Virus record (IMG/VR): IMGVR_UViG_3300021254_000023
Strand: one strand, 5' to 3'
Origin: an uncultured virus (IMG/VR IMGVR_UViG_3300021254_000023)
Lineage: Duplodnaviria; Heunggongvirae; Uroviricota; Caudoviricetes
Length of the DNA: 64,000 bases
In this document: positions 4,725-59,050 of the stretch, piece by piece
Numbering within the stretch: position 1 is the stretch's first letter
Layout: every line of letters begins with the position of its first letter
The notes under the pieces: generated by a model
Seen by the model: only the letters and a program-made list of their open reading frames with translations
Databases searched by the model: none
What the model was told of the DNA's origin: nothing
Translations under genes and position numbers: made by a program

Positions 4725-5442
4725 AGTCCCAAGCTCTTTTTAACATAAGAGGTAATTTTTGATAATCACTAAAACCATAAAGTCCGCAACTAACAAACTC
4801 ATGAGCTTCCATGACGACGGTCATAATAACACCTTCTTTATTCTTAATGACGGCAAAATCCATTGTTAAGGCAGGACAAGTTAAGCCGGATATCCTAATA
4901 GCCCTTTTTATTTTAGATGGTTCCGGGAAGACAAAAGGATCTCCTGAATACGGCTGACAAGCTATAACCTCACCTCCCCATACAAAACATCTCCACTCTG
5001 ATAAAATATTGAGAGGTAAACGGAATTGATAATCTTGATTAGGGTCAAGAGTAGATAGGTCCGTAACCACACCATTTATACTATCTTTTAAGAAAAGAGT
5101 GGACTTAACATAAAGAGGTGTTGTTGATTTAAATTTTTCAGGTAAATCAGCTACTTTACCTACCCAAGCACCACCCGTCCAAGTATCATTATCAAAGAGG
5201 GGAGTTGGAATATTAATAGGCTTAATATCTATCCCTGAGAATACTTTAACAAACTCAATAGTTCCAACAGGTATCCAATCTAAATCAATAATGTCTCGTT
5301 TAGCCTGAAGCTCCTCTAAAGACATATAGGTAATTGAAAAGGGTTCTTTGCGCCAATTCCAATACTCTTGGGCGCGTTCTAATTCAAAACAAAAATCTAA
5401 TGTAACTTTTCCGTTAATTGTTTGAATAATAAATTTCATCAT
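4687..5442 (-). CDS. ATP-grasp (R2K/DUF4343-like) protein
   Basis: IPVGTIEFV, SEWRCFV, TMDFAV, VMEAH..SCGLYG motifs; start moved to ATG at 5442 next to promoter motif. Confidence 0.75.
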   Translation of the reverse strand: MMKFIIQTINGKVTLDFCFELERAQEYWNWRKEPFSITYMSLEELQAKRDIIDLDWIPVGTIEFVKVFSGIDIKPINIPTPLFDNDTWTGGAWVGKVADLPEKFKSTTPLYVKSTLFLKDSINGVVTDLSTLDPNQDYQFRLPLNILSEWRCFVWGGEVIACQPYSGDPFVFPEPSKIKRAIRISGLTCPALTMDFAVIKNKEGVIMTVVMEAHEFVSCGLYGFSDYQKLPLMLKRAWDYVKSINQGRFSR

Positions 5443-5537
5443 ATCACCTATAAGGTTGTGAGAAAATAAAAGGAGAAAAACTTCTCCTATTTTTTTTAGT
5501 CGCCGTCCTTTCAAAGTCCGGCTCCGCTGTTCATTAC

Positions 5538-6464
5538 TCATTCACAAGAGCTGAAGAAAGGGAACACATGGTACCTGCAATCCAGGTAATCGTAATAGTC
5601 CCAGCGGTCCCAGCGACCACCACTGCCCAGGTACCAAACCGAATCGGCGCTTCGCATGGAGGATGAGTAAAACCAATAACCCCAAGGTATGTTCTCTAAG
5701 CCAAGGGCAAACCTAGTTATATTAATCTCCGCCAAAGACAGGAATGCTTCTTTAAGCTCACCAATGGCCGGTACGTATCCACCAAGCTTTCTAGCTTTCT
5801 CAAAGGCGGGGAACTCTAAGTCAGGGTTTTTAAGTAAAATATCCCTCTGATTTTCCTCACCACTCATGTCACGGTTGGCTTCTTCAAAATTCATATTCTT
5901 GGCCGTATTAATGATTCGTGAAGTACAAAATGCTACGTCCTGGAACCACTCGGTGGAGACTATGTGTTTGCCGACCTTAATACCAATCACACCTTTTCTC
6001 TTCTGACCTTCCTGAACACTTACTATGCTTTTATCCTCTAATAGTACCTCTAATGCAAACTGGGGAACAAGGGACTCTAAAGTCTTAGTGTAGAGTTGTT
6101 CTGTAGCTCGGGAAACAGCGTCTTTAGTAATATGTAATTTCCTCGCGGCTACCTGATTCAGGTCATCTTGTATCCACATTCTCGTTCCTGCTGGGATTGT
6201 GGCCTTGAAAATCTCTCCGCCAGTACCATTCCTTCTAGCTTCGACAGGATTTAGGTAAGCATGTATAGCTCCACCGTTTAAGGAAAACTTATATCCATAT
6301 TCGTCAAAGTTAGGGTCCCCGGAGGGAATAAGATCCTTTCCTAGTGTGACAGGACAACCTTGGTAAGGAGTTTTATATCCGTCTGTGCCTTTCTTTAAGA
6401 CTTTATAAACTGTTATATCTTCTTTTGTTACAAATCCGTTTTTATTTCCGATATATAAACACAT
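5538..6464 (-). CDS. Protein with C-terminal C-type-lectin/DUF1566-like domain; probable DGR target
   Basis: YVPAIGEL...YSSS...VW...RYHVFPF architecture; C-terminal codons almost all NNC/NNT (CGC, GAC, TAT, TAC, GAT, TGC). Confidence 0.65.
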   Translation of the reverse strand: MCLYIGNKNGFVTKEDITVYKVLKKGTDGYKTPYQGCPVTLGKDLIPSGDPNFDEYGYKFSLNGGAIHAYLNPVEARRNGTGGEIFKATIPAGTRMWIQDDLNQVAARKLHITKDAVSRATEQLYTKTLESLVPQFALEVLLEDKSIVSVQEGQKRKGVIGIKVGKHIVSTEWFQDVAFCTSRIINTAKNMNFEEANRDMSGEENQRDILLKNPDLEFPAFEKARKLGGYVPAIGELKEAFLSLAEINITRFALGLENIPWGYWFYSSSMRSADSVWYLGSGGRWDRWDYYDYLDCRYHVFPFFSSCE

Positions 6465-19734: not shown

Positions 19735-20433
19735 ATGAATATGAAAAAGAAATTTGATCTAAATGATTTTAGAGGATTCTTTAAAGCAGGGAATCCCAGT
19801 ATGATGACCGCGTTCGATGATATCATGACGAAGAAAGAGGCTGTTCAAAGTCCATACATCCTAGAAGAAAGGGAGATGCATGTGACACAGATGGATATCT
19901 TTTCTCGACTTATGGGAGAACGTCAAGTCTTCTTTGCTTCAGAGGTAGATGATTATTCCGCTAGTATTACAATAGCTCAGCTTTTGTACTTGGATAGTCA
20001 GTCAGATACGGACATAACTATGTACATTATGACAGGTGGTGGTAGTTGTAGTGCTGGTTTAGGAATATGTGACACTATGAACTTTATTAAATCTGATATT
20101 AAGACTATCAATGTGTCCATGGCTGCCTCTATGGGATCACTCCTGCTTTCCTCAGGAACACGAGGTAAAAGATTTTCACTCCCCAATGCATCGTGCCTTA
20201 TTCATCAGCCCCTAATTGGAGGAGGTGGATTAAGTGGTCCGACTGCAGATATTATGATTGAAGCTAAACAGATGGAACTCCTCCGGGAGCGTCTGTTCAG
20301 ATACTTGGCTCAGAGAACGGGCCAACCTTACGAGAAGATCTTTGAGGATGCTAGACGAGATTTTTGGCTTAATGCTGAGGAATGTAAAAAGTATGGCATC
20401 ATTGATGAGATTATTGAAACTAAGATGGATTAA
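19735..20433 (+). CDS. clpP: ATP-dependent Clp protease proteolytic subunit
   Basis: PYILEERE..QMDIFSRLM (Bacteroidota-type), AASMG (Ser), HQP (His), RDFW (Asp). Confidence 0.95.
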   Translation: MNMKKKFDLNDFRGFFKAGNPSMMTAFDDIMTKKEAVQSPYILEEREMHVTQMDIFSRLMGERQVFFASEVDDYSASITIAQLLYLDSQSDTDITMYIMTGGGSCSAGLGICDTMNFIKSDIKTINVSMAASMGSLLLSSGTRGKRFSLPNASCLIHQPLIGGGGLSGPTADIMIEAKQMELLRERLFRYLAQRTGQPYEKIFEDARRDFWLNAEECKKYGIIDEIIETKMD

Positions 20434-23767: not shown

Positions 23768-24027
23768 CTATAAGGATGAGAAGGGCCAAAAAACGCAAAA
23801 CCCCTGAAAATCTTAAGTATGATATGAACAGAGTTTTTTGTATAAATGAAATTGTTAATGGAATTTTATACAGGACTCGAGAGAATAAGATAGGAAAAGC
23901 TTTTGTAGTTTAATAATGTACAAAACACGAAATACAATTTCGGAAACTGATCCAAACTCAGTCAAGAGCACGACGAACCTCAACCACAGTGAGGCTAAGT
24001 CATCTAACAACATTAATGTTTTATAAG

Positions 24028-25083
24028 ATGAACAAATTTCTGATCTACACCTCGAACCCGAAGATCATGCCTAAGTCAATGGCTGATATCGTGGAGTTTG
24101 CTAAGAATGAGCCTAAGTTTCGCATCGCGAATGTAGAGCTGAACACTCACCTGGCAAACGTTAAGGCTGGTGACCACATTGTGACCACCAAGGGTAACAA
24201 CCTGTATGTCATCAAGGCATACCAGGATTCTCTCGAGAACCTTTCAGAAGAAGAGCGTACGTACATTGACACGCTTACGCGTGAGTACGCCATGAAGAAG
24301 GTCAATATCACTGGTGTATCGAATGTTATCAAGTTCGAGAACTGGTGCAAAAGTGCTAAACCATTAATCAAGACAACAGAAAAAGAAGACAAGATGAACA
24401 AGACGAATTCTATCAAGGGCTATGCTGCCCGCATCAAGGAGATGTTCATGCCTACTGAGGCTAAGGACATCCGCGTAGCAACCGACGGTAACCTGTGTGT
24501 TGCCACCAGTAATGGTTATGTGGCTATTGACGCCGCCAACAACCTGCTCTCGTATCCCGAGGAGTTCACTATCGACCTGCCTGTGTATATTATCAGCAAG
24601 CCGAAGGAGCAGCTCAAGCCCGGTGATGTGATCGCACTGGATCGCAGCTACGCCAAGGTCGTTAAGATCGAGGGTGATAAGATCTCTGGTATCAGTTACA
24701 CTGGTTCTGGCAAGACTATCCACCTGATCAAGGACGTTCTGTTCAACCAGGCTATGGTCCGCGTGGCTGTATCTCTCACCGGCTCTATCGGTGGTCAGAT
24801 CAACCCCATGCTGCTGATGGCCTTGAATGACGACGACAAGAAGGATTCGCTCCTGCCTCTGCTCCTCATGAACCAGCAGGGTGGCGCTGTCGGCATGAAC
24901 CCCATGCTGATGCTCGCTCTGGCAGGTAAGGAGGACGGCAAGTCTTCTCTTAAGGACCTGCTGATGATGTCTGCACTGACTGGCAATAACCTCTTCGGAG
25001 GCGCCGCATTCGGTGTTCAGGCACCTGCACAGGTTGTAACAGAGGCTCCTGCCGAAACCAACGAGGCTCCGGCTGCCGAGTAA
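24028..25083 (+). CDS. Conserved phage protein, strongly codon-biased
   Basis: NPMLLMAL repeats at C-terminus; C-ending codon bias; start uncertain. Confidence 0.75.
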   Translation: MNKFLIYTSNPKIMPKSMADIVEFAKNEPKFRIANVELNTHLANVKAGDHIVTTKGNNLYVIKAYQDSLENLSEEERTYIDTLTREYAMKKVNITGVSNVIKFENWCKSAKPLIKTTEKEDKMNKTNSIKGYAARIKEMFMPTEAKDIRVATDGNLCVATSNGYVAIDAANNLLSYPEEFTIDLPVYIISKPKEQLKPGDVIALDRSYAKVVKIEGDKISGISYTGSGKTIHLIKDVLFNQAMVRVAVSLTGSIGGQINPMLLMALNDDDKKDSLLPLLLMNQQGGAVGMNPMLMLALAGKEDGKSSLKDLLMMSALTGNNLFGGAAFGVQAPAQVVTEAPAETNEAPAAE

Positions 25084-25153
25084 AAACTGAACGAGGGTAC
25101 TCTTACTGTGGTTAAGGGTACTCTTTTACTTTTAAAATAAAACCAAACTATAT

Positions 25154-25942
25154 ATGGACAATACGTTTAGTTTTCTAAATCTTTGTAGTATTTATAAGAC
25201 AGAGGGATACGCCAACTATGAATTGGGTACTTATCCCTGTTTCGCAAGAACTCTCAATAGGTGGGGAAACCATAGAGTTGACAACGTTCGGCAGGTACAC
25301 TATGAAATCTACCTGATGAAGGGTTTAGATGCAATTAAAACTAAGAGGAATAATGCATGTCTCCTGAACAAGAAGGAGATTGAGGGTTGGCTCAAAATAG
25401 CTAAAACTTACCATCCGTTTAAGTATAAACTGGAAAACAGTTCGTATAAACTGGAAGGTAAAGAATGCGAAGCTTGGAAACTACATATCGATATGGTGGG
25501 TAATTATACTCAACATAAATGGATCTTGACATCTCTACGTGGATTCTATGAGTATCCATTCAATATGTGGTTTATCGATGCACATCGCCTAAGAGCAACG
25601 GATCCTCAAAAATTCCGTGGGGAGTCTATTCTCAATATTATGGAGACTATTATTTCATCGTTCCCCAACAGCTATCAGTCAGATCAGTCGTTGTTACTAC
25701 CTAACCGTCAATTCCATAGTAAAAACTATGTGAAAAAGAAGATTGGAGAAGGTATTCAATATATCACAAAAATTTACGACGAAAAGACAACGGGGGATTT
25801 TAAGCGAATCGCTGAACCCGGAGCTAGTTGCCTACTCTCCTTTGATTGGTGGATGAATGAGAAGTCCTTTGCAGAGCGAGCAAAGATTTATCATGAGAAT
25901 TATGATAAAATTAAAGAACAAACGAAGCCAGAAGTAGTATGA
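25154..25942 (+). CDS. Hypothetical protein (first gene of amidoligase cluster)
   Basis: 262-aa ORF; ATGA overlap with next gene. Confidence 0.75.
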   Translation: MDNTFSFLNLCSIYKTEGYANYELGTYPCFARTLNRWGNHRVDNVRQVHYEIYLMKGLDAIKTKRNNACLLNKKEIEGWLKIAKTYHPFKYKLENSSYKLEGKECEAWKLHIDMVGNYTQHKWILTSLRGFYEYPFNMWFIDAHRLRATDPQKFRGESILNIMETIISSFPNSYQSDQSLLLPNRQFHSKNYVKKKIGEGIQYITKIYDEKTTGDFKRIAEPGASCLLSFDWWMNEKSFAERAKIYHENYDKIKEQTKPEVV

Positions 25943-26559
25943 AAGTATTTGTAGTAGGACCTAGTATTGGGTATTCAAGATTTATTGAAGACCTAGAACT
26001 GGTCGATGACATGAAGGACGCACAGGTAGTCCTTTTCACTGGAGGCGAAGATATCAATCCAGAATTGTATGGATGTAAAAAGCATCAGTCTACTTGGTTT
26101 AATGCCAAGCGTGATCAATTCGAGGTTGAATCATTCAAGAAAGTCGCCTTAGACCAACTTTGCGTGGGTATATGCCGTGGATTTCAATTATTCTCAGCCA
26201 TGTATGGCGGGAAATTAGCTCAAAACGTATCAGGTCACTGGTGCGGACGGAGTCACAGCATAACCAACGGGAAGATAACTTATGAGATTACATCTCTTCA
26301 TCATCAGATGGTATATCCATTTAACCTGGATCAGAAGGATTTTGAGATTCTCTACTGGGCTGAAGGAATAAGCCACTGCTATGAGGGAGATGGAATTGAT
26401 CCTAAGTTTTATAGTATGTTTGGTGAACCTGAGATAGGTCTCTTCCATAGGGAAGGGTTGCCAACATGTCTCGGTGTACAAGGTCATCCTGAGATGATGG
26501 CAGGTTCACCAGTTGCAAAGATGATTAATGATTTAATTCGTCAAAATATAAAGAGATGA
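25939..26559 (+). CDS. Class I glutamine amidotransferase (peptidase C26-like)
   Basis: FTGGEDI, GICRGFQ, SLHHQ, GVQGHPE. Confidence 0.9.
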   Translation: MKVFVVGPSIGYSRFIEDLELVDDMKDAQVVLFTGGEDINPELYGCKKHQSTWFNAKRDQFEVESFKKVALDQLCVGICRGFQLFSAMYGGKLAQNVSGHWCGRSHSITNGKITYEITSLHHQMVYPFNLDQKDFEILYWAEGISHCYEGDGIDPKFYSMFGEPEIGLFHREGLPTCLGVQGHPEMMAGSPVAKMINDLIRQNIKR

Positions 26560-27149
26560 CTATAAGAGATATAACAATTGGAGCAGATCCCGAACTGTTT
26601 ATCATAAACAAGAAAACGGGAAAAGTCGTATCATCCATAGGATTAATTCCCGGTGAAAAGGGAAATCCTTGGGTAGGTGAAGACATGCCTACAGGATTTG
26701 GCTTGGAGATTGATAATATCTTGGCAGAATTCAATATACCTCCTGCTGTAGATGGACTTAGTTTCGTCAACAACGTCGAGTATATGAAGAAGTATATTGA
26801 AAGATTTGTAAGTGAAAAGAATCCAGACCTTGGAATTCTTTGCGCCGCAAGTCAATCAGTGCCATCAGATCAACTTCAGTCAGATGAGGCAAAACAGTTC
26901 GGCTGTAGCGTCGACTACAATGCCTATACTGGTGGTCCTAACCCTAAGCCAAAGGGTGAGACAACGAATCTCCGCTCGGCCGGATTCCACATTCACATAG
27001 GTTATAAAAACTATAATGCAGATACCTCTATCCAGTTGGTCAAATATCTGGATCAGTATCTCGGAATCCCATCGATTATTCGAGACCAGGACAAAAAGAG
27101 AAGATCTCTATACGGTAAAGCCGGTTGTTTCCGGTTAACCGGTTATGGT
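26556..27149 (+). CDS. phiEco32-like COOH.NH2 ligase type 2, exon 1
   Basis: IGADPELF, DNILAEFN, FGCSVD, RSAGFHIHIG, RRSLYGKAGCFR..YG; continues after intron. Confidence 0.9.
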
Positions 27150-27421
27150 TGACTTAAAATAAAAACACCATAGATTGAGTTCAGAAAACTAAACACAAAT
27201 AACAGTTGGACTTAATCTATGTCGATGCATGTACATAAGTACAGTTTAGCCTGTGCTATCAGAAATGGTAGTAATCAAGAATCCCCCAAAGTCGGTGAAC
27301 CAGCATCAGGAATACCGAGCCAAGCTGCTAACTCAGCAGAAGGTGTAACGACTTGACGAGGGACCCTCAGCACGTAAAGGTGGAGGTGAAGGTAAAGTCT
27401 ATCTAGGAGTGAACCTAGATG
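27150..27421 (+). ncRNA. Group I intron, ORF-less, 272 nt
   Basis: Exon ends in U, intron ends in G; splicing restores YG|VEYRVLS; P1 GGU|UGA:UUAGCC with U.G; GTCGGTGAA..AATACCGAGCCAAG core; P7 GACTT 27350/AAGTC 27395; terminal ATCTAGG/CCTAGAT hairpin. Confidence 0.9.
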
Positions 27422-27616
27422 GTTGAATATAGAGTTCTCTCAAGCGCCCTCATGAAAGATGAGGAGAGCCTGGATTTCGTATGGCAGAAAACAATGCGCG
27501 CCATTCAAATGCATAATGAAGGTGCAGGTCTTTTGCCAGGTGAAGTCGTGCAAGATATTATTAACAATACGAAAGTTAAGACCGCTGAACAGGTCATTGC
27601 CGACTACAATCTCTAG
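27422..27616 (+). CDS. COOH.NH2 ligase type 2, exon 2 (spliced product 262 aa)
   Basis: Begins VEYRVLSS, the expected continuation of the family motif YGVEYR. Confidence 0.9.
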   Translation, partial: VEYRVLSSALMKDEESLDFVWQKTMRAIQMHNEGAGLLPGEVVQDIINNTKVKTAEQVIADYNL

Positions 27617-27721
27617 AGATATACCCGCTGCGAGGAGAGTTTCTGCACTTAATTGTGTGGGCTCTCATTCAGCGGTGATAAAGAAATAAATCATTAAATT
27701 AATAAAAAAAATTAGCAGCGG

Positions 27722-29203
27722 ATGTGTGGAATATTTTCGATAATTAACTCGAAACCACGTAAATTTGACTATACGACCTTCTGCGTATTAGGAGTTAACA
27801 ATGACTCTCGCGGAGGTGATAGTTGTGGAGTATTCATTGACGGACTTTGGGAAGTTGGAGTAGATAAGAAAAAAGAATTCCGAGACTTTTTTAAAGAAAG
27901 TTCTGTCTTGAATCGTATAAAAGGTAAGAATGTAAGTATTGCCCTTGGACATTGCCGAAAGGCATCTGTCGGTGGCATATCAGATAAGACGGCTCAGCCG
28001 GTTGTCTTAACAGATAAAGCTGGAAATGCTAAATTCGTAATGATTCATAATGGTACTATTCATAATTATGAAGAGCTAGCCAAAAAGTACATTCCGAAGG
28101 TAGACATTAAAGGCTTAACTGATTCTCAGGTTATGGCCAGAATATTCTATTACAAAGGATATGATTGTCTGGCTGAATATAACGGTGGATCAGTATTTCT
28201 GATCGTAGATTATAGACAACCAGAGCCAAAAATCCTCATTTTCAGAGGAGCTAGTAAGAAGTATTCAACTTCTACAACAATTGAGGAAGAAAGACCATTC
28301 TATTTCATTCAGAACAAGAATGAGTTTGTCTGCTCATCAATCGACAAGTACCTAGAGGTATTACGTCCAGACGACGAAGTATTTACCGTTGAGGATAATG
28401 TACTAATTCAAGTACTTCCAGGCGATATTGTAAATATTAAGTCTTATGATCGAAGCAATTGCCAGCAAAGCAAAGTTTATGCAAGCAGTAGCAGTTCTTC
28501 TTCTTATGGAACTGTTTGGCAAGGCAATCAAGGCGGTAGTACGTATGGTGGTACCTACTATCAGGGTGGTGGATATCGTGGTAATGTTGGTGTTGGACAC
28601 ACAACTCCAGCGGTAGGTTCAGAAACTAGTAAAGGAGGCACGTCAACGGGGAGCTCTATTGACAGAGTTACTTCAGTTGGGCCCAAGTTTCTCAGACCAG
28701 ACAAAAAAACCAACATCTACTTCACAGACAAAGCCAAGACAATCCCCGCCCACGGGCAGCTCTCAATCAACGACTTCGGCCGGATGTACACAGGAGAAGC
28801 TTCCAAAGAGGAATCCTCACATACGGTCAAAGAAATCTGGTTTTTTAATGGGGTTGCTCTCCTGGATGTTGAGTACTTTAGATTCCTCGAGTTCGCATTA
28901 AAGAAATCAAAGATGGATAAGGACGAGTTTATGAAAAAGTACCAGAATCTGATTAGATTCGTGAGTCTTGATAAGCTCTACCCCGCGAACGGATCATTCC
29001 ATCTTGCGACAGGTTTCTCTTCTCATAGACCATTCACTGGTGAATTCCAGATGATAGGCGATTCGTTCGTTAGTGAGTTTAAGGACGGTCAAACTTCATG
29101 TTATCGAAACATAAAGAATTATGACCATCCACTAGACCTCTTAGGAACCAAAGGAATAAGTGTAACCAAACTCTATAAACGATGCAAGTCATTGATGAAG
29201 TAA
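27722..29203 (+). CDS. Class II (Ntn) glutamine amidotransferase
   Basis: N-terminal MCGI, RGGDSCG, GHCRKAS, HNGTI, DSQ. Confidence 0.9.
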   Translation: MCGIFSIINSKPRKFDYTTFCVLGVNNDSRGGDSCGVFIDGLWEVGVDKKKEFRDFFKESSVLNRIKGKNVSIALGHCRKASVGGISDKTAQPVVLTDKAGNAKFVMIHNGTIHNYEELAKKYIPKVDIKGLTDSQVMARIFYYKGYDCLAEYNGGSVFLIVDYRQPEPKILIFRGASKKYSTSTTIEEERPFYFIQNKNEFVCSSIDKYLEVLRPDDEVFTVEDNVLIQVLPGDIVNIKSYDRSNCQQSKVYASSSSSSSYGTVWQGNQGGSTYGGTYYQGGGYRGNVGVGHTTPAVGSETSKGGTSTGSSIDRVTSVGPKFLRPDKKTNIYFTDKAKTIPAHGQLSINDFGRMYTGEASKEESSHTVKEIWFFNGVALLDVEYFRFLEFALKKSKMDKDEFMKKYQNLIRFVSLDKLYPANGSFHLATGFSSHRPFTGEFQMIGDSFVSEFKDGQTSCYRNIKNYDHPLDLLGTKGISVTKLYKRCKSLMK

Positions 29204-30441
29204 CAAGAAATGAAGTCAACTCCAAGAACTGCAAACGAATAATCGTTGGCTGGGAGAAAGAAGGAGGTTGGATAGAAGGATATACCTCTCATGTAGATAA
29301 GTGTATTTCAGCATGTATTCGATATAAAGATGGAAGAACCGAGGAACGTCTAATTTTAGGTGATTCTGAGGCTGGTAAGAATGTATTCTTCAGTAATCTC
29401 AATGGATACTACATGTGTCGGTTGGGAATGGATAACGAAACCTACATAAGAGAGAGATATACTAGAGGTCATGGTGGATTTCCGTATCACTTTGAAAGAA
29501 GATACGAAGCCGTGGAGAATTTCAGTCTTTTTAATCGAAAACAAAAGGTTATTGAGACAAAGAAGACGAAATATCCTATCTCTAAACACTTGAAGTATAC
29601 ATTCGGTCTAGAGTTTGAGACCAGCGAAGGTTATATTCCAGAGGATCTCTGTTTTAGAGACGGATTGATTCCTCTTAGGGATGGTTCTATTAGTGGCCTT
29701 GAATACTCGACGGTCGTTCTAGAAGGGAATAAGGGTATATCTCTGCTTCATCAAAGTCTTCATGACTTGAGAAAGTTTACTGGTTTTAACAAGGAATGTT
29801 CTTTACATATTCATATGGGAGGATATCCACTTGAACCAGATAAGATATATGCCCTCTACGTGACGTGTTTTCGCCTCCAATCAGCCCTTCAGAATATCTT
29901 ACCTGCTCTCACATTTCGCACAAGCAAATACAAAGCGAGTGGAAAAGACTATTGCAACTTAATGCCAGCGTTCTATAGCTTTGATGAATTATTTCAAGGA
30001 CTAGTAGGACGTAGGTATATGGGATCGTTGGTACAGCCACACCCCAATGATCTAGAAAGAAAAAGAAAGTGGCAAATAACTACACGCTATTACTGGTTGA
30101 ACTTGATCAACATGATCTGTTATGACATTAACAAAACGGTTGAATTCAGGTTCCTTAGACCTACTTACAATTTTAGAAAGATAGTGACGTGGATCTATAT
30201 ATTCAATGGTATCCTTAAGTTCTGTGAGGAAAATTGGAGATTTATAAGTCACGACTTAAGCAAGCCTCTGTCTCTAGTAGATGTCATGAGGCGAGCATAT
30301 CCAAGAGAAGTTGCTGATAAGATTGAAGGCGAGATTGTAAAGTTGTCTATTCTCGTACAGAATCAGCACAAAAATGGTGATAATATTGGCCAGGATATTT
30401 CCTTTGAGGAAGAGTTGTTCCCTGAGGATATCCTACTATAG
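29182..30441 (+). CDS. Putative amidoligase
   Basis: FGLEFET, RDGSI..LEY, CSLHIHMG, RYYWLN, TVEFR. Confidence 0.85.
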   Translation: MQVIDEVTRNEVNSKNCKRIIVGWEKEGGWIEGYTSHVDKCISACIRYKDGRTEERLILGDSEAGKNVFFSNLNGYYMCRLGMDNETYIRERYTRGHGGFPYHFERRYEAVENFSLFNRKQKVIETKKTKYPISKHLKYTFGLEFETSEGYIPEDLCFRDGLIPLRDGSISGLEYSTVVLEGNKGISLLHQSLHDLRKFTGFNKECSLHIHMGGYPLEPDKIYALYVTCFRLQSALQNILPALTFRTSKYKASGKDYCNLMPAFYSFDELFQGLVGRRYMGSLVQPHPNDLERKRKWQITTRYYWLNLINMICYDINKTVEFRFLRPTYNFRKIVTWIYIFNGILKFCEENWRFISHDLSKPLSLVDVMRRAYPREVADKIEGEIVKLSILVQNQHKNGDNIGQDISFEEELFPEDILL

Positions 30442-32832: not shown

Positions 32833-33096
32833 TTATGCTTTTTTATGAATTGTTACTCGTCTGATCTTTAAATTAGCATCCCACTCACATTGTGGACACT
32901 CAAGTTTAATCGTACCTTCAATTACTTCAACATCTTGAAGCTGCTCTAATTTCTGGATCTGCTCATCGCTAAGATCTGAGTTTAGAGTAATGTGGATAGG
33001 ATGACCACAAGCTGGACAATGATCTTTATCCTGGTCGTCAAAAATACGCCCATCCTTAGTAGTTCCTTTAATTCGTAATAGATCTTTAATTTCCAT
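32833..33096 (-). CDS. Zinc-ribbon protein
   Basis: CPAC...CPQC. Confidence 0.65.
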   Translation of the reverse strand: MEIKDLLRIKGTTKDGRIFDDQDKDHCPACGHPIHITLNSDLSDEQIQKLEQLQDVEVIEGTIKLECPQCEWDANLKIRRVTIHKKA

Positions 33097-35008
33097 ATTC
33101 TTTTAATTGTTTAAACCATTCATATTGATTAGCATCACTTGGCATTCTCCAATCTCCTCTTGGACTTAATGAGATTGAACCGATCTTAGGTCCGTCTGGA
33201 AGACAACTCCTCTTGAACTGTTGACTAAAGAATCTATTGATGAATACCTGTAGCCATTGCTTAAGATCGGCCCTTGTATATTCTTTACTCCAGCCCTCCT
33301 TAGTATGTTCAGCTATGTACATAATCTTGGCAGGACCGTAACCATGACGAAGCATATTGTATAGGAAAAAGTCGTGAAGCTCATAGGGACCGATTTTATC
33401 TTCCGTTACCTGAGCATCTTTTCCATCTGCACCAGATCCAGTAAGTTCTGGACTAACTGGAGTATCTAGGATATCTTCAAGTGTATTATAAAGCTCTCTA
33501 TTAGATACCATGATCCAGCTGGCATACCATCCAATAAGCTTCTTAATAAGAGTCTTTGGAACGCTAGCGTTAACGCCATACATACTCATGTGATCGGCAT
33601 TATAAGTACACCAACCTAAGGCAAGTTCTGACAAATCACCAGTACCAATAACCAATCCTTTTTCTTGATTAGATAGGTTCATGAGAATTTGTGTTCTACT
33701 ACGTGCCTGTACATTTTCATATGTAACATCTTGTGTATCCAAGTCATGACCAAGAGCCCTAAGCTCGGCTGTAGCCATATCAACGATACTTACCTCTCTA
33801 GCATCTATTCCAAACGCCTTCATGAGAGTCCAAGAATTCTTCTTTGTTCTTTCACTGGTTGCAAATCCAGGCATGGTTACACCAATTATATCAGATACTG
33901 GATTTTTAAGCATCTTCATTGCCTCTACCGCTACAATTAAAGCCCAAGTAGAGTCTGAACCGCCTGAAATTCCAATAACCGGCTTCATGCCAGTATGATA
34001 CAACCTTTTAGCAAGGGCGGCAGACTGCATGATAAGTATGTCTTTACATCTTTCATCTAGTTCTTTACCCATTGGTACAAACGGCTTGGGATTCCACTTT
34101 CTTACTGTATCACCTTCCCCGAGGATAGCTCCAGGAATCTGACATTTTGTCACATCTTTTGGATTATGCTCGGAGCGGAACTGACGGAATGTCGTATTGA
34201 TAGCACGCTCATTTCTAATAGACTCTAGGTCAATGTCGTTTATTACAATCTGACCGCCAGTATTAACAATCAAGTTTCTATTATTTTGAGCCAAGAGCTT
34301 GCCATTCTCAAAGATTAATGCATTTCCTTGATAGGATAGGTCTTGGGTAGATTCTCCAAAACCAGAACTAGCATATACATAACCACAAATATGATCCGCA
34401 CTTCTTTGACGAAGCATGGACATTAGATATTGATGTTTTCCAATAAGTTCATTACTTGTTGAAAGGTTAAATATGACCTCAGCTCCAGCCTGTACTAGTG
34501 TTGTACATGGAGGACAGGGAGACCAAACATCTTCACAAATTTCTACTCCAAACCTTACACCATCCTCAGTTTCAAAAATTCGAGGAGGAAGATTATCACA
34601 ACTAAACCATCTAGGTTCATAAAACTCTTTATAGCCGGGAAGATTCCGTTTTCCAACGGCTTTGATTACCTCTCCTTTGTGGATAACTAGTGCTGTGTTG
34701 AAAATAGGCTCATTATTATCTGCTCGAGCTGGGGCGCCAATTATGATAACCTGTCTATGATTTTTGGTATAATCACAAATATCTGCAATACCTTTTTCAG
34801 CGGCCTCTAAAAGGCACTCTTGGAAAAATAGGTCTCCACACGAATAGCCAGTTACACAAAGCTCTGGAAAAACGATTACATCAACTCCCTGGTCTTCTGA
34901 CCTATCAAGGAGTTCTTTTATTTTACTAATATTGTAGGATACATTTCCTACGGTTACTTCTGGAATAGCTGCCGCTACTCTTAACAGTTTTGCTTGTTTT
35001 CTGTTCAT
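33086..35008 (-). CDS. nadE: Glutamine-dependent NAD+ synthetase
   Basis: Nitrilase domain (FPEL, EICED) plus GISGGSDST, ENVQAR, GTGDLSE, SQQFKRSCLPDGPK. Confidence 0.95.
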   Translation of the reverse strand: MNRKQAKLLRVAAAIPEVTVGNVSYNISKIKELLDRSEDQGVDVIVFPELCVTGYSCGDLFFQECLLEAAEKGIADICDYTKNHRQVIIIGAPARADNNEPIFNTALVIHKGEVIKAVGKRNLPGYKEFYEPRWFSCDNLPPRIFETEDGVRFGVEICEDVWSPCPPCTTLVQAGAEVIFNLSTSNELIGKHQYLMSMLRQRSADHICGYVYASSGFGESTQDLSYQGNALIFENGKLLAQNNRNLIVNTGGQIVINDIDLESIRNERAINTTFRQFRSEHNPKDVTKCQIPGAILGEGDTVRKWNPKPFVPMGKELDERCKDILIMQSAALAKRLYHTGMKPVIGISGGSDSTWALIVAVEAMKMLKNPVSDIIGVTMPGFATSERTKKNSWTLMKAFGIDAREVSIVDMATAELRALGHDLDTQDVTYENVQARSRTQILMNLSNQEKGLVIGTGDLSELALGWCTYNADHMSMYGVNASVPKTLIKKLIGWYASWIMVSNRELYNTLEDILDTPVSPELTGSGADGKDAQVTEDKIGPYELHDFFLYNMLRHGYGPAKIMYIAEHTKEGWSKEYTRADLKQWLQVFINRFFSQQFKRSCLPDGPKIGSISLSPRGDWRMPSDANQYEWFKQLKEYGN

Positions 35009-39197: not shown

Positions 39198-39545
39198 ATG
39201 AATGAAATAAAACTACATGAACTAGTAGCAAATGTATTTAAAGATTATCCATACAGCGCATGTTTGTATATAGGAAAATATAGGTTTAAAACAGAAGGGG
39301 ATACTGTTCCTGAAGTAGATGTATGTTTCCCGTGGGAAGCAACTGATATAGAAGATATACCTTTTTCTGTTTATAGTAGAGGACCAATTATCACGACTAA
39401 GCCAAAAGAGAGTATAGATAAATTACTTATGTTCTTCTTGGATGATAGTCCAACGAATTATTTTACGATGGTCCACAGAGAAGCCGGTAAAGATTATTAT
39501 ATGTACATAAATAGACATTCAGATATATACATAACAAAAGGATGA
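39198..39545 (+). CDS. Hypothetical protein
   Basis: ORF with promoter motif upstream. Confidence 0.65.
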   Translation: MNEIKLHELVANVFKDYPYSACLYIGKYRFKTEGDTVPEVDVCFPWEATDIEDIPFSVYSRGPIITTKPKESIDKLLMFFLDDSPTNYFTMVHREAGKDYYMYINRHSDIYITKG

Positions 39546-40111
39546 TTAAAGTAAAAAGTATCACTGACGTTATTACTAATTCAAGTACGGAGGTATTTGT
39601 TTTGAAATTAACAAGCAAAGAAGCAGAGTGGCTCGAGAATGTAAGAATAACTTCCGCAAGAAAAGCTTTGAAAGCCAATAAGGAAAACAAACAATGGCTT
39701 AGACGTTTAAATGAGGAAGATAGGAAGGACTATACTTCATTAGATTTTCTAATGGATGAAGTAAGTGATTGTACAGTCATTCTAGCGCCATGTTTTACTA
39801 GAGAGGGCCTCTTGTGGGGATTATCCAGTAAAGAGGATAAGAAAAATCTTTGGGTTAATAGTGACTGGGAATATATCAGAAAAATTATAGGCGGTAAAGC
39901 CATCGAAGAGACAGACGAGGATCCACACTTTAGGCCATTTAATAAGTGGCTAGCAGACAATATTGATTGGATCTCTGAAAAGATGAAAGATGTCTGGTTA
40001 ATGGAGGTTAATAACTATGATGAAAAGATTTATGAAAAGTTAGACCTCTATGCTCACATAGATAACATACCGCACGATAAAAAAGTTCTATTTTATGAAT
40101 GTAGGCATTAA
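39542..40111 (+). CDS. TNSS-motif protein A
   Basis: N-terminal KSITDVITNSSTEVF; C-terminal YECRH. Confidence 0.8.
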   Translation: MIKVKSITDVITNSSTEVFVLKLTSKEAEWLENVRITSARKALKANKENKQWLRRLNEEDRKDYTSLDFLMDEVSDCTVILAPCFTREGLLWGLSSKEDKKNLWVNSDWEYIRKIIGGKAIEETDEDPHFRPFNKWLADNIDWISEKMKDVWLMEVNNYDEKIYEKLDLYAHIDNIPHDKKVLFYECRH

Positions 40112-40514
40112 AAGCATTACCGACGTCATAACCAACTCTAGTACAGAAGTATTCGTAGTTAGAAAGAAAGGTAAACAAGTAGCTGAAAATGGTTACTTTT
40201 CTGGAATAAATACGCCACAGTCTGTTAACTGGGAACCCAAGGAGATAACTTGGAAGTGGTTAAGATCAAATCAGGGGAAGTCTGAATGGATGATGATATG
40301 TGACCTAGTCGATAAGCCATATACTGAGCTATCAACTTCCGGAGAGGAGCCCAGTTGGGGTAGATGGAATGATTGGATTACTATTCACAAACATAGAATT
40401 CAGGACAGAGCTATTGGGTTATGGTTCTTAACTATTCGAGACGGATTCGGTGGATTCCTAGATATGGTGAAGGATATAAAAGATTACATTGTCTGGCATG
40501 AATGTAGGCATTAA
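40095..40514 (+). CDS. TNSS-motif protein B
   Basis: N-terminal KSITDVITNSSTEVF; C-terminal HECRH. Confidence 0.8.
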   Translation: MNVGIKSITDVITNSSTEVFVVRKKGKQVAENGYFSGINTPQSVNWEPKEITWKWLRSNQGKSEWMMICDLVDKPYTELSTSGEEPSWGRWNDWITIHKHRIQDRAIGLWFLTIRDGFGGFLDMVKDIKDYIVWHECRH

Positions 40515-40791
40515 GAGTAAGACAGATATCATAACCAATTCTAGTACGGAGGTTTATGAAATTGTTGTTAATGGTTCCCCGAAAAGAATTGAAGGAATAC
40601 TTCAGGGGATCTTAGATACTCTTGATTGGGTTGGACATGATATAGCTACAATGACGGTCAAAGAGAATATTATAACTTTGACTGGTTGTGAGGACAATTC
40701 TATCCCACTTCCCTTGATAGACTTATTAGAGAAAGGAAAGTTTAAAGAGTGGTTTAGTGAAATTAGTGAAATTAAAAATAAAAGAATATGA
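40498..40791 (+). CDS. TNSS-motif protein C
   Basis: N-terminal KSKTDIITNSSTEVY; EDNSIP motif; ATG at 40498. Confidence 0.8.
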   Translation: MNVGIKSKTDIITNSSTEVYEIVVNGSPKRIEGILQGILDTLDWVGHDIATMTVKENIITLTGCEDNSIPLPLIDLLEKGKFKEWFSEISEIKNKRI

Positions 40792-46645: not shown

Positions 46646-46763
46646 ATATAAGGCTTTTCACGGAAAATATGACATCAAAGCCTTATAAGTGAATAATAAA
46701 CGTGACACGAGTTTCCTTCTTTTAAGGCTAGACTTGTTGTCACTTAATTTTAATAAATTTATT

Positions 46764-47258
46764 ATGGAAGAGAAAAGCTATTACGAATTATGGCCAGTAT
46801 TGCCATATGAGAAAAACGAAAAGTACGAGTATGAAATGTACAATAGTTGTATGTTTAATAGAAGCGATAATAGAAATCAACTGAGGTTTACTCTCTCATT
46901 CGAAAGTATAGAAGAATGGTTCCTAGGTATGTCCTACCTTATAGGACGAGGTTGGTACAATAGCATGAAATTTGCGTACAGTCTAATTCCGACCCTCAAA
47001 AAAGAAGACGGAACACCTGCTTACCATTGGGTAGAAGCAAGAAAACAGAAGGTGAGAGAAAGAACCCGTGATATAACAGTAGACAACTTTAAACAGGTTG
47101 TTGATTTTGACGGAAGACTAGTTATAGATATAGTGATTAACTATAACAAACTAGAAGAATTCAGGAATTCTCTGAAAGAATGGCCTGGATTTTCAACTAT
47201 GTGGCTAAGCCCAGATTGTAAATGGAGTAGCCAAGACAATAATTATTTTATTAAATGA
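46764..47258 (+). CDS. Hypothetical protein
   Basis: ORF; ATG at 46764. Confidence 0.65.
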   Translation: MEEKSYYELWPVLPYEKNEKYEYEMYNSCMFNRSDNRNQLRFTLSFESIEEWFLGMSYLIGRGWYNSMKFAYSLIPTLKKEDGTPAYHWVEARKQKVRERTRDITVDNFKQVVDFDGRLVIDIVINYNKLEEFRNSLKEWPGFSTMWLSPDCKWSSQDNNYFIK

Positions 47259-47932
47259 TTATCTTACGAAAGAAGAATGTAGTAGAAGAACGAACATTCT
47301 CGAAGCCTGATTATTTGTTTGGAACAAACCATATTGTCGGTGTTATTCAACAATTAGTCAAGCTAATGAACATCCGCACAGGAAGAGATGCGGAGGACAA
47401 TTTTAGTCACTGGATTGCTAACTTACAGGGAGCATTTATTCGCCAAATCTTAGCATCAGTGGCATCTACAAACAATCTTATAGGTGGATATCAATCAATG
47501 CTTATTTTAAACGAAGATAAGGATAGGATTATTTCCGACCCTAAGATTAGAAAAGTCTTTGGTGATGAGCTTGCAAACGACGTTAGTAGTGGAAGACTCA
47601 AGTGTGGTGATGAGCTCATTATAGAAGGTATTAAAAGTGCTGAAGGTGATGGAGGTATGAAGTATAAAAGTCACTTTACAAAGTTAGAAAAAGATAAAGA
47701 ATTTATTGCAAATCTCCGAACACTCCTTAGGCATATTGCACTTCGTTTATCTGGACAACTTGGTCCGAACGACGACTATTGGGACTCTACGTGGAAAGAA
47801 GTAGACTATACTCGTCGATCGAGCGTTAAGTATACAGAGAAACAAGTAAGAGAAATTATGATTCAAAGTCTCATTAAATATTTTGAAGCTATGGGCTTAG
47901 AGTATAGTGAGGCACTGCATGAATACGAGTAA
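47255..47932 (+). CDS. Hypothetical protein
   Basis: 225-aa ORF followed by GGGGAG/CTCCCC terminator. Confidence 0.7.
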   Translation: MIILRKKNVVEERTFSKPDYLFGTNHIVGVIQQLVKLMNIRTGRDAEDNFSHWIANLQGAFIRQILASVASTNNLIGGYQSMLILNEDKDRIISDPKIRKVFGDELANDVSSGRLKCGDELIIEGIKSAEGDGGMKYKSHFTKLEKDKEFIANLRTLLRHIALRLSGQLGPNDDYWDSTWKEVDYTRRSSVKYTEKQVREIMIQSLIKYFEAMGLEYSEALHEYE

Positions 47933-48012
47933 ATTTCTCAGGGGAGCCTAAACCACTCCCCGTTTTTTTTTCTGGACCAAAATAAAAGAGAGGATTTCTC
48001 CTCCCTTCTTTT

Positions 48013-49200
48013 TTAACCTTTCAGAACAGCTATTGGACTGAGATGAACCAATGGCTTAACCAAGTCCTTCTCATTCTCCAGGACCTCTTCAATGTTCTTA
48101 TAGGCAGAACCAGCCTCTTCAAGGTCCCTCCTACTTCGAATAGCATGGATAATTCCCTTCTCCTCCATCATAGCACATTCTTTATCAAAATCAATCGTAT
48201 TGACGGCCTCAGTTCTAGACATCTTACGACCTGCTCCATGTGAGCAAGACTCATAAGAATCAGGGTTCCCTAAGCCCTCAACAATGAAGCTACCACTACT
48301 CTGGCTACCGGGGATAATACCAATCTCACCGAGTCCAGCACGAGTGGCTCCCTTACGGTGGACAATACACTTAATGCCAAAGTGTTCCTCATATGCTGCA
48401 TAGTTGTGATGAATATCAATGGGCTCTTCATGAGTCATATCAGGACATACATCCCCAATGACTTGGAGAATACGATCCATCATAAGCTTTCGATTAGCAC
48501 GGGCCCATTCTAAGGCAAATTCCATTTCATGCCAGTAGGCATCGAATTCTGGTGTACCTTCGGGGAGGAATGCTAAACGAGCTTCAGGGTCTACAGCCGA
48601 GAAATACTTCTTATTCAGGTCTTTGGCTATGGCCTCGTACTCTGAGAACAATCGACCACCAACACCACGAGAACCCGAATGAACCATGAGCCAAAGGTTA
48701 TCGTTGTCATCCTTTTGAAACTCGATAAAGTGATTGCCGGCCCCGAGTGTACCAAGTTGTTTTCTGACCAGCTTATTCCAACCATTTCCCTTTGTAATCA
48801 TAGGAAGTGTAGCAGGATCCCAACCTTGTGGGAGGAGTTCCTCATCTTGAAGAGTCTTCTGCGGCTCATCTCCTATCACGACAACTTTGCGTGTGCCACG
48901 CATAAAGCCCTTACGAATCACTTCTGGTGTGAGAGTGGAGGCCTTAATGTTTGTCTTGACAGCACGCATGCCACAGCCGCAATCTGAGCCAATTGCAATA
49001 GGGACAACAACACCTAACAGTGGCATAACTGCGCCGATACTAACTGATGCGCCGGCATGCATGTCAGGCATATAAGCAATTCCTTCGGGGTGAATGAAGG
49101 GAAGTTTAGAAGCGTTTTCTACTTCAACCCAAGCACGGGCATCTGCTGATGTTGCCCAAATTTTAATTTTAGTTCCGTTTAATGTTACAGATTTCATCAT
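48013..49200 (-). CDS. rtcB: RtcB-family RNA ligase
   Basis: MPDMHAG, DCGCGM, GTLGAGNHFIE, HSGSRG, HHNY, HRKGAT, SHGAGR, AYK. Confidence 0.95.
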   Translation of the reverse strand: MMKSVTLNGTKIKIWATSADARAWVEVENASKLPFIHPEGIAYMPDMHAGASVSIGAVMPLLGVVVPIAIGSDCGCGMRAVKTNIKASTLTPEVIRKGFMRGTRKVVVIGDEPQKTLQDEELLPQGWDPATLPMITKGNGWNKLVRKQLGTLGAGNHFIEFQKDDNDNLWLMVHSGSRGVGGRLFSEYEAIAKDLNKKYFSAVDPEARLAFLPEGTPEFDAYWHEMEFALEWARANRKLMMDRILQVIGDVCPDMTHEEPIDIHHNYAAYEEHFGIKCIVHRKGATRAGLGEIGIIPGSQSSGSFIVEGLGNPDSYESCSHGAGRKMSRTEAVNTIDFDKECAMMEEKGIIHAIRSRRDLEEAGSAYKNIEEVLENEKDLVKPLVHLSPIAVLKG

Positions 49201-53535: not shown

Positions 53536-53598
53536 CTATTATTCTTTTATTATTCACCTATAAGGCATAGACAAACAATAAACACCTTATGATTGAAT

Positions 53599-54216
53599 AT
53601 GAAAAATGAAATTAAGAAATTAGGATTATTACTTGGTACATTTGATCCTATACACATAGGACACATTGAATTAGTAACTAGAGTACTTGGTGAGGGACTT
53701 GTAGATAAAGTTTATATTGTTCCTACTCCAGGTAATCCCTGGAAAGATCACAAACCGGCTTCTTTCGAACTGAGATGTTATATGATAAGACATCTCATCA
53801 AGAAAGAAATTATGGATGCTGGTTTACAAGATAAAGTAGGATTTATAACAGGTGCTTTCTGTGAATATAATCCAATTGACCTAGCGGATCCGGAAGACGG
53901 TAAATATTATTCTTACTTACAGTTGGCTAGAGTTAAGGATGAACTGGGGCCTATGAATGAGTACTATATTATAGGTGGCACTGATGTTGCCGAGAGTGTA
54001 AAGGGATGGAAAAAGAGCGAGGAGATACTCAAAGAATTCCACCTCCTAGGAATGGACCGAGCCGGATATGTAGATTTTCCTGAAGGGGGACCTTCCATAA
54101 AGGTTTCTTCAACGAATATTAGGGAGATGATTATGGCTGGTAAGTCTACATTCCCTTGGCTCATGCCTAGCACCATTGATATAATTCATAAATACAGACT
54201 ATATGAACGAAAGTAA
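53599..54216 (+). CDS. nadD: Nicotinate/nicotinamide-nucleotide adenylyltransferase
   Basis: GTFDPIHIGH, NPWK, IIGGTD..WK, VSSTNIR. Confidence 0.9.
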   Translation: MKNEIKKLGLLLGTFDPIHIGHIELVTRVLGEGLVDKVYIVPTPGNPWKDHKPASFELRCYMIRHLIKKEIMDAGLQDKVGFITGAFCEYNPIDLADPEDGKYYSYLQLARVKDELGPMNEYYIIGGTDVAESVKGWKKSEEILKEFHLLGMDRAGYVDFPEGGPSIKVSSTNIREMIMAGKSTFPWLMPSTIDIIHKYRLYERK

Positions 54217-57387: not shown

Positions 57388-58491
57388 CTAGTATAAAAGT
57401 TCTCCTCTATACATTCCACCATTTTTCTGAACACCACTTATAATAAAGCGACGTTCCAATTCACCGTACCTGCTATACAGCCACCCATCCTTATCCTCTT
57501 TGAAGATTTCTCCAAAGTTTTCTGTTCGGGTACCTACATGCAGTTTAGTTCCTTTTACACGAATTGTATCCGTGTATAGGCCGAACTTAGTAGCTAAGTA
57601 ATCATCAACCCAGTGATTTGGTTCTTCAGCCTTTGTTTCTGTAGTTCCTCCATCTGGTTCACAGATTTCTGAATCTGAACTGACGGGTGCGGGATCTTCT
57701 TTAATCTTACCCTTCCCGATGGAGATTGAATTTATTACTTTTCCTATTACAGCATTGAGTTTACCTCCGGAGGGTTTCTTAACTGGATCTCTTTCTTCTT
57801 CCTCTGCATCGTTTTCGTGATACCAATCGTATTCTGGATCAGTACGACGATCCCATTTACTGTAGAGCCATGAAGAAAGTTTATCTTTTCGTCCGTATCT
57901 CTTGATATAGGTTTTAGCCTCATTGAATTTCTTTTCAAACTCATCTATATCCTCTCGTCCAGCTACGTAGTCCATGTATAGGACGCTTACATAGTTTGTA
58001 CGAACCTGGATATTCAGACAATTGTCGTCTTCAATTCGGCCATGGATATTAGCTTCATCAACAATAGATTTAAGCGTATCGATGGTACTAACCTCCAGAG
58101 AGTTAACAAGTTCCATAACGTCTGCTCGGACTTCTTTAACTTCAAGGTTCTCATCAACATATTGATTGATAGCTTTAGCAGAAATATTGCTGAACGTCTT
58201 GATATACTTAATACGACCGGGTCGGCCTACCAAGTTCTCATTAATATTCAGAGTATTCGTGGTCAAGATATAGAGTTTTCTGCTCTTATTCATGACACCA
58301 TCAATCATTTTGAGGAGTGCTTGGCTTGCATTAGGGTCATCGTTCCGGAAGACCTTTTCAGCTTCATCTAAGAAGATGACACACTCAAACTCCAGCATCT
58401 GTACAAACTCAATCATACCAGGAGTATACTGGTTAATGATGATGATAGGGATGTTAATCTCGTTGCAGAGAATTTTGGCACTAATGGTTTT
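57388..58491 (-). CDS. AAA+ ATPase, exon 2 (spliced product 466 aa)
   Basis: Starts KTISAKILCN, completing Walker A; IFLDEAEK (Walker B), LTTN, RPGRI. Confidence 0.9.
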   Translation of the reverse strand, partial: KTISAKILCNEINIPIIIINQYTPGMIEFVQMLEFECVIFLDEAEKVFRNDDPNASQALLKMIDGVMNKSRKLYILTTNTLNINENLVGRPGRIKYIKTFSNISAKAINQYVDENLEVKEVRADVMELVNSLEVSTIDTLKSIVDEANIHGRIEDDNCLNIQVRTNYVSVLYMDYVAGREDIDEFEKKFNEAKTYIKRYGRKDKLSSWLYSKWDRRTDPEYDWYHENDAEEEERDPVKKPSGGKLNAVIGKVINSISIGKGKIKEDPAPVSSDSEICEPDGGTTETKAEEPNHWVDDYLATKFGLYTDTIRVKGTKLHVGTRTENFGEIFKEDKDGWLYSRYGELERRFIISGVQKNGGMYRGELLY

Positions 58492-58753
58492 CAGTTATGT
58501 TACCCTATAGGCTTTTTATCCTATAGTTCAGATAGGTTCTTTGTTCCCTACTGCTCAGCATATATTTTCATCCTTTCTTTTTTGGATGGCGAACGCTCGT
58601 GGAGAGATTATATTCAGTTCTCTGTTTCACTCTCTATGCGTTACACTACTTAGGATTCTTTAAGTCCTAAGTTAGCACGGTATTATCATCACAGACTTCA
58701 CCGTTTTCGCTCGCTAATGATTTAATCGATTTCTCGACTAAACGGCCGTTTTG
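58492..58753 (-). ncRNA. Group I intron, ORF-less, 262 nt
   Basis: Exon ends GGU, intron ends G; P1 GGU|C..GGCC with U.G; AAAACGGTGAA..AATACCGTGCTAAC core; P3 GCGAGCG/CGTTCGC; P7 GCATA/TATGC; CTATAGG/CCTATAG terminal hairpin. Confidence 0.9.
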
Positions 58754-59050
58754 ACCAGTTCCTTTAATGCCGTTAAAGATTATACCCAGGTTCTGGTTAC
58801 GTGAAATTACGTACTCACTATTCCAGGTCTTCTTTATTTTCTCAATGAATTCGTCAATTCCCAGATCATATACTTTGAATGGGAATTCGAACTTTTCTGC
58901 AACCTTCTGGAGTCCAAGTCGTTGACTCATTGGGTTTGGATCTTGAACCAAGTTAAATATACCTGGTCCTGGGGAAGGGTAGACTTTAAAGTCTGCTGAG
59001 ATTGGAAAGAATATTCCATGCTCAGGAATCCATTTGATTTGATTACTCAT
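58754..59050 (-). CDS. AAA+ ATPase, exon 1
   Basis: Ends NLGIIFNGIKGTG; splicing gives GIKGTG|KT. Confidence 0.9.

Follow-up and report, generated by a model that had tools for sequence, protein, structure and literature searches.

The window (the whole 64,000-nucleotide stretch of DNA analysed here) comes from a 139-kb linear virus record (G000) that is estimated to be 38% complete, so the phage is probably a jumbo phage of ~360 kb. An AAA+ ATPase gene lies on its minus strand in two exons. Exon 1 (58754..59050, 99 codons) ends at the last glycine codon (GGT) of the Walker A motif and is 92% identical at the nucleotide level to an intron-less allele (L007); exon 2 (57388..58491, 367 codons) begins at the Walker A Lys-Thr and contains Walker B and the arginine-finger region (Pfam AAA, E 1e-7; intact homologues). 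The two are separated by a 262-nt, IA-like group I intron without an open reading frame (ORF) (58492..58753, terminal G at 58492), which is supported by a boundary test, its fold, a joint in RNA, and covariation. The record that holds the intron-less allele (G001) is collinear with G000, covering 93% of it at ~75–93% identity. Metagenome runs containing the stretch were labelled gut, sheep gut, and bovine gut, and assembly names of Bacteroidales or Bacteroidaceae on 3 of 120 ATPase homologues (among the matches listed) suggest, but do not show, a Bacteroidota host.

Elsewhere, the window encodes an ATP-grasp R2K gene (4687–5541), a ClpB-like protein (15019–17724), ClpP (19735–20433), a phiEco32-like cluster of COOH-NH2 ligase, glutamine amidotransferase, and amidoligase (23989–30441), an NAD synthase (33086–35008), and a cytidylyltransferase (53593–54216). 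A block of ~2.6 kb including an RtcB gene (46689–49200) is present in G000 but not in G001; the second of the two RtcB genes in G000 is at L006:4363-5841. Two tandem groups of small genes (window 39542–40791 and G000 136997–138967) have in common an N-terminal motif like TDVITNSSTEVF.

The first-pass annotation had placed a group I intron inside the Walker A motif, and its coordinates proved exact: once 58492–58753 (262 nt, minus strand) is cut out, a 466-aa ORF remains that contains GIKGTG|KTISAK, and the boundaries are canonical, with T as the last base of the 5' exon and G as the last intron base. When boundary shifts of up to 6 nt were tried, only 58492–58753 left G-x4-GKT unchanged with T at -1 and G last. 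Once the ATPase is spliced, Walker A, Walker B, and the arginine-finger region fall in a single frame (PF00004, phrog_2376), and an intact homologue likewise matches the phrog_2376 ATPase. The unspliced frame reaches a stop 28 codons into the intron, upstream of the Walker A lysine. As the annotation had also stated, the intron holds no endonuclease gene (longest open stretch 28 codons).

The spliced junction proposed there as a check was recovered from RNA. A joint of 58491 to 58754 was found in 3/3 RNA runs (X3, X4, and X5, from two studies), as an exact skip of 262 bases with no extra letters, and was absent from the matched DNA run X1 (same sample as X3; 0/1 DNA runs). This evidence consists of contigs, not reads, and contigs give neither strand nor level; the X5 contig spans the joint with >1,000 bases on each side, and the short side is only 30 bases in X3 and X4. 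No joint of an intron circle was listed for these runs, although contigs are unsuited to proving absence. Because the sole intron-less DNA allele found, of the L007 type, has other flanks (GGA|AAG), spliced mRNA is the best interpretation of a joined form whose flanks are of window type. P0002 and P0009 resemble uninterrupted proteins encoded by the window gene and by L008 but were left out of the intron-less alleles, as they may derive from assemblies of spliced RNA. In gut RNA data, the intron is exactly removed from the ATPase mRNA.

The intron folds stably (z = -5.23, with 0/200 shuffles equally stable), and the core pairings reported by the annotation are all present: P1 with its U.G pair, P2–P9, a P7 of GCATA/TATGC, and the terminal G (coordinates below are on the minus strand). 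In P1 (58743..58757), the exon end and first intron base are predicted to pair with an internal guide (intron nt 7–11), placing U.G at the 5' splice site (duplex -7.2 kcal/mol). It is followed by the P2 hairpin (58721..58742; 72–86% of alignment cells paired), the 5' strand of P3 (58708..58714, partner 58589–58595; 98.8% paired, with both-side changes in 7/7 pairs), and the P4-P5-P6-P6a domain (58645..58704; 91.7% paired for P4-P5 and 90% for P6-P6a). The 5' strand of P7 (58635..58641; A, bulged C, GCATA), the predicted guanosine-binding site, is 100% paired in 24 sequences, with 2/6 pairs compensatory, and its 3' strand reads TATGCT (58557..58562). Between these strands lie P7.1 with a small P7.1a (58602..58634; 98.3% paired), an extra helix that marks class IA, and the P8 hairpin (58569..58588; 94% paired). 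P9 and P9.1 (58505..58553) complete the structure; P9.1 is 100% paired, whereas P9, which aligned poorly, is 59.5% paired. The P9.1 stretch is the conserved 3' motif of the intron's family, and is common to a second intron copy in the same samples.

Covariation among 24 hand-picked family members backed the P3/P7 pseudoknot core (P3, P4, P6, P7, and P8). Overall, 89% of cells were paired and 50/65 pairs had both-side changes, compared with 32–45% paired when the partners were slid, although the structure model was drawn from the window sequence and so has an advantage over this control. A G-C pair in P7 was found in 24/24 members, and the A-U pair with a bulged C is replaced by G-C with a bulged A in 3/24; we take the G-C pair beside the bulged base to be the guanosine-binding site. 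As read from the sequence, the start of exon 2 is unable to pair with intron nt 1–7 or the P1 loop, and P10 is therefore absent. Pairing of P10 with the 3' exon is common in group I introns but not universal. Given the presence of P7.1, we place the intron as class IA-like, following features of the class that are in part set out in PMC3984707. The Rfam model RF00028 (Intron_gpI) had no match at the gathering threshold in the window, nor locally at E <= 5, and the whole record gave only a sub-threshold match on a second intron; Rfam is consequently unusable for counting introns here.

That second ORF-less intron (27150..27421, plus strand, 272 nt) is predicted from sequence in the COOH-NH2 ligase gene (GYG|VEY), after GGT, with P7 GACTT/AAGTC (RF00028 E 4e-4, below the cut-off), and G001 has an intron-less allele of this site. 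Independent origins had been proposed for the two window introns from their differing P7 helices, and they are indeed no more alike than shuffles (121 matches versus a shuffled mean of 131). Insertion after GGT, however, does not hold as a rule, given that a third ORF-less intron follows CAT and that 12/67 intact AAA homologues also end in GGT. This third intron (G000 4668–4849, in L002; 182 nt, P7 GACTA/TAGTC) lies in the tail-tube gene, where splicing restores the C-terminus seen in G001 and G002. Beside it is a gene for a free-standing 489-aa endonuclease (G000 L002:4995-6464; phrog_559, E 1e-28). Both the intron and the adjoining endonuclease are absent from G001, and the two are arranged as in collaborative homing. 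In the tail-tube genes of two relatives of 360+ kb (G003 and G004; L373–L377), the coding sequence is in two to three pieces, likely reflecting further introns.

A fourth intron is inferred from depth. A 32-nt stretch of the window intron (58498–58529) is at double depth in the DNA run, and a 52-kb contig is at matching depth, implying a second family copy in the unassembled part of the genome. A loose end in RNA reads K-T-Q-T-I (translated by eye), so exon 2 of this copy appears to begin at another Walker A motif; its host gene was not found in G000, G001, or the viral contigs. The suggestion that the genome holds many minimal introns was thus partly borne out, with a third and a fourth added, but the number is modest, at three in 139 kb. 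The ligase gene has introns at differing sites: G001 carries its own family intron at another site (SAG|FHI; L378) than the GYG|VEY site of G000 (window 26556–27615), each site being flanked by 14–15 consecutive synonymously recoded codons, and in G002 a third position in this gene is occupied by a family intron (L382). Separately, the RtcB gene of G001 (~128906–129806; L389) has an 899-nt insert, absent from G000, with a LAGLIDADG ORF and an intron-like 5' part.

From its sequence, the ATPase intron is assigned to a family common among phages, marked by P7 GCRTA/TAYGC and undetected by Rfam. A search with a 3'-motif pattern that is silent on P7 returned 100 viral loci, and among 81 distinct 3' ends P7 was GCATA in 53, GCGTA in 20, GACTA in two, GCACA in one, and unparsed in five. 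The family matches 21 GenBank phage records; a profile HMM added none in G000 and a single one in G001. Two automatic callers of 5' splice sites mis-called even the window intron, and their junctions were dropped except for L263, which was rechecked. Lys-Thr/Ser codons directly follow 19/116 distinct family 3' ends (pattern loci and further loci), and a G-x4-G exon end was found by eye for 12 of those 19. The proteins split at these 12 Walker A sites are presumably AAA, DnaB-like, ClpX-like, helicase, and FtsK-like, as labelled from motifs, and 5/12 of the introns have a LAGLIDADG motif in the P1 loop. At the site occupied in the window, L008 has an ORF-less intron 76% identical to the window intron, with compensatory changes in P7, and a related ATPase (L333) has a 1,173-nt intron with a LAGLIDADG ORF (PF14528, E 1.7e-9). 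In a tree of 61 cores (from 98 parsed, with near-copies dropped), a single Walker A clade was rejected (p-AU 0.004; the bootstrap did not settle). The window intron grouped with L008 and L396, all ORF-less and at the same site, and the endonuclease-bearing L333 intron was placed elsewhere. Two family introns occur close together in one region at L226/L307, L283, L285, L300, L316, L320, and L337, the second in L226 beginning a few codons past the first. Because Rfam misses the family, ATPases, helicases, and terminases end up wrongly annotated as split genes.

We examined how the intron is distributed among alleles of the ATPase. Of 75 homologous loci, Walker A was intact in 67, held this intron in one, and was unparsed in seven. 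Intron-less alleles had been called for, and L007 is one, in a close relative. L396 is a strain of the L007 lineage, its exons being of L007 type at 206/233 informative sites outside -18..+15 (exon 2 has a 1-nt deletion), yet its intron is 257/261 (98.5%) identical to that of the window and its flanks are of window type at 10/10 informative sites from -16 to +11. With a near-identical intron and window-type flanks in an otherwise L007-type gene, intron and flanks moved as one DNA block, and this transfer was most likely recent. The unit moved between strains, comprising the intron and exon bases -16 to +11 (58481..58769, minus strand), has the form of a co-conversion tract; it rests on one contig, and its limits were read after the fact. 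Against distant L008 alone, the flanks were uninformative (24 versus 22 of 30). Homing copies flanking exon sequence, whereas reverse splicing gives no co-conversion, according to the part of PMC2504315 available, and the co-converted flanks therefore favour homing at the DNA level over reverse splicing.

Our main reading, to which we give a probability of about three in four, is that a group IA-like intron is exactly removed from the ATPase mRNA, with its own ribozyme the likely catalyst, and is likely spreading between strains as DNA, by homing with an endonuclease from outside the intron. Following established group I chemistry, guanosine bound in P7 would attack the U.G site in P1, and exon 1 would then attack after the terminal G, restoring the Walker A lysine that the ATPase requires. 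During co-infection, a nuclease would cut the intron-less Walker A codons, and repair would copy the intron together with about 27–33 nt of exon. Trans homing of this kind has examples in F-CphI/psbA and mobE/I-TevIII. The nuclease could be free-standing, or be supplied by a family intron that bears an endonuclease gene, for instance the LAGLIDADG one in L333 or its counterpart in crAssphage cr6_1; the L333 intron, at the same site, indicates that nucleases for such Walker A sites exist. Mobilisation in trans, as the first-pass annotation had suggested, fits the co-conversion tract, but the L333 endonuclease had no match in G000 (38% complete) or four related records, and a motif scan detected no LAGLIDADG motif in G000. 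The sole endonuclease found in this incomplete record is 114 kb from the window intron, beside another intron. The nearest relatives of the intron (L396 and L008) are also ORF-less and the L333 intron lies elsewhere in the tree, so the tree lends no support to a recent loss of an endonuclease gene.

The main rival to homing needs no nuclease: an old, vertically inherited intron was lost by L007 through gene conversion from a distant intron-less allele, the divergent tract being that of L007. The failure to find a candidate nuclease in G000 or the four related records is compatible with this, as is the ORF-less state of the closest relative outside the near-copies (L008, 76%, same site), and the direction of change is not directly readable from three alleles. 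However, the window and L396 introns differ at 4/261 positions, whereas their exons differ at >=212 (at least 212) of ~1,530 aligned sites, and loops vary freely across the family. Third positions in the tract are also identical at 10/10, against a genome-wide synonymous difference of 32% between the lineages. We consider vertical inheritance with loss in L007 unlikely.

Coding sequence beside most of the intron sites is unusually divergent at synonymous positions. Between G000 and G001, 31.6% of same-residue codons differ (10,308/32,644), and a peak in synonymous difference was found at 3/4 sites where an intron is present in one record and absent from the other. The ATPase site had 14/20 differing same-residue codons and the two ligase sites 15/20 and 14/20, values matched by only 0.4–1.3% of 26,129 windows of codons; the tail-tube site had no peak (5/20). 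Runs of 15 and 14 consecutive differing codons at the ligase sites are unlikely even at saturation (P 0.001 and 0.005), and the run at the ATPase site was not significant (P 0.11). Such runs suggest selection to differ, for example through escape from a nuclease. Variation raised beside mobile introns is known from yeast mitochondria, as described in the part of PMC5378118 consulted.

Another route, which had been offered alongside mobilisation in trans, is that reverse splicing into mRNA, with reverse transcription and recombination to follow, brought the intron to the ATPase site and takes it to new genes. Occurrence of the family in many unrelated genes is consistent with this, as are Walker A members that do not form one clade (p-AU 0.004), and one RNA contig bears on it. 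In X3, a contig of 635 nt (depth 9, no other letters) contains the whole intron and then its terminal G joined to G000 127661 downward on the minus strand (L006:3661), without microhomology at the joint. The junction lies directly after GGT in a phosphatase-like ORF, at an HCKAGKSR loop, 7 kb from the intron. Pairing with the guide is -8.1 kcal/mol at this site, compared with -7.2 kcal/mol at the natural site; a guide score as good occurs at 245 of 139,136 minus-strand positions of G000, in which 1,487 positions follow GGT. The chimera is possibly a half-finished reverse-splicing event, the product expected of the first step, or it may stem from ligation or ribozyme activity during library preparation. 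It was found in 1/4 RNA runs, no matching 5' junction was seen in the RNA contigs, and no such join was present in the DNA run; X4 and X5 read unbroken through the site, in a slightly different allele.

As an account of how the ATPase site was reached, reverse splicing fares poorly: flanking exon bases travelled along with the intron, and in the known intron-less allele the codon before the site is GGA, giving A instead of U at -1 and hence no U for P1. A motif scan also found no clear reverse transcriptase (two four-letter matches only). We regard this full pathway as improbable, slightly more so than vertical inheritance, and it lacks direct experimental support according to the part of PMC3984707 available. 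It is a tentative but less remote proposal that the excised intron stays active in natural infections, attacking guide-matching sites in other phage mRNAs, which is the first step of reverse splicing. If true, the chimera would offer a view, from nature, of the RNA route long proposed to carry ORF-less group I introns into new genes, and could explain the repeated colonisation of Walker A motifs in unrelated NTPases by the P7-variant family; endonuclease homing would then spread new insertions, leaving fully recoded scars of 40–45 nt in intron-less alleles. No publication on reverse-splicing chimeras in metatranscriptomes was found, in a search that most subscription papers lay outside, and, given a guide-matched chimera, raw metatranscriptome reads can serve to test whether reverse splicing occurs in nature.

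The missing P10 and the lack of an Rfam match (at the gathering score in the window or locally at E <= 5) might raise the suspicion that the insertion is degenerate, or an assembly artefact, and disrupts the ATPase gene, but the exact skip in RNA contigs, the same insert in independent assemblies (L396–L398), and strong covariation in the core make this reading extremely improbable, and the RNA joint already refutes it unless the joint contigs come from intron-less DNA.

Well-known class IA introns of phages include those of T4 td/nrdB/nrdD and Twort orf142. Among GenBank phages, relatives of the window intron are in crAssphage cr6_1 (NC_055894.1), Bacillus phage PJN02 (OM634653.1), and phiCD211, which hold unannotated family members with cores 67–68% identical to it. 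In cr6_1, a related ATPase has the intron at the identical Walker A position, with an annotated endonuclease, and the PJN02 intron is at the Walker A motif of a RecD-like helicase. In both, an endonuclease ORF sits in the P1 loop, unlike in the ORF-less window intron, and in the records the ORF has an annotation and the intron RNA has none. In the tape measure gene of phiCD211 (L400), the family member, itself unannotated, sits a short way upstream of an annotated Intron_gpI. We found no publication on the P7 GCRTA/TAYGC variant, or on group I introns at Walker A of phage AAA ATPases, in a search that covered few subscription papers; the Jug tables S8/S12, the Bastillevirinae supplement, and the GISSD IA2/IA3 alignments lay beyond it, and the family may already be there.

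Jug phages are the nearest published parallel. The consulted part of PMC12880540 counts 2,513 group I introns, most of them short, in 136/139 of these phages, and describes stand-alone endonucleases, and splicing support for 37/76. Like the probable jumbo phage of G000, they are gut phages with large genomes and short ORF-less introns (mean ~206 nt in Jug phages) and splicing support from metatranscriptomes. However, the samples behind G000 are of ruminant-gut type, and the phage is a relative at most, likened only by its AAA and tube proteins, which are ~55% and 65–72% identical to homologues in contigs of 360–400 kb. It also has three introns in 139 kb, compared with 18.5 per Jug genome of 360–402 kb, and the intron-bearing genes named in the accessible text of PMC12880540 are terL, nrdD, and DNA polymerase, with neither an AAA ATPase nor co-conversion mentioned there. 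Collaborative or trans homing, as outlined in the available part of PMC3984707, resembles the window intron in its ORF-less state, conserved site, co-conversion of flanks, and requirement for an outside endonuclease; in G000, the layout with an adjacent nuclease occurs only at the tail-tube intron.

The introns of Bastillevirinae (PMC11878797) and of Bacillus cereus group prophages (PMC2504315), as far as the portions consulted describe them, are likewise of class IA with P7.1 and interrupt conserved coding motifs after a U. Versions with and without an endonuclease ORF occur side by side, and P1 is retargeted between related introns, as here. The window intron has a P7 of GCRTA/TAYGC, against the GACT-type of the other two G000 introns and the IA3.1 example, and it also departs from these phage class IA introns in having no P10 and no Rfam match. 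In the parts consulted, PMC11835236 gives IA2 as dominant in viruses and PMC11878797 describes a diversity of phage introns that exceeds the current subgroups. ORF-less group I introns in phage genes, including those of gut jumbo phages, are already published, and minimal introns with stand-alone endonucleases are known for Jug phages (PMC12880540). The present case is of value for how completely natural data document a single locus, with exact splicing in RNA, an allele lacking the intron, a recipient strain whose sharp co-conversion tract spans ~30 nt, and relatives that bear an endonuclease at the same codon.
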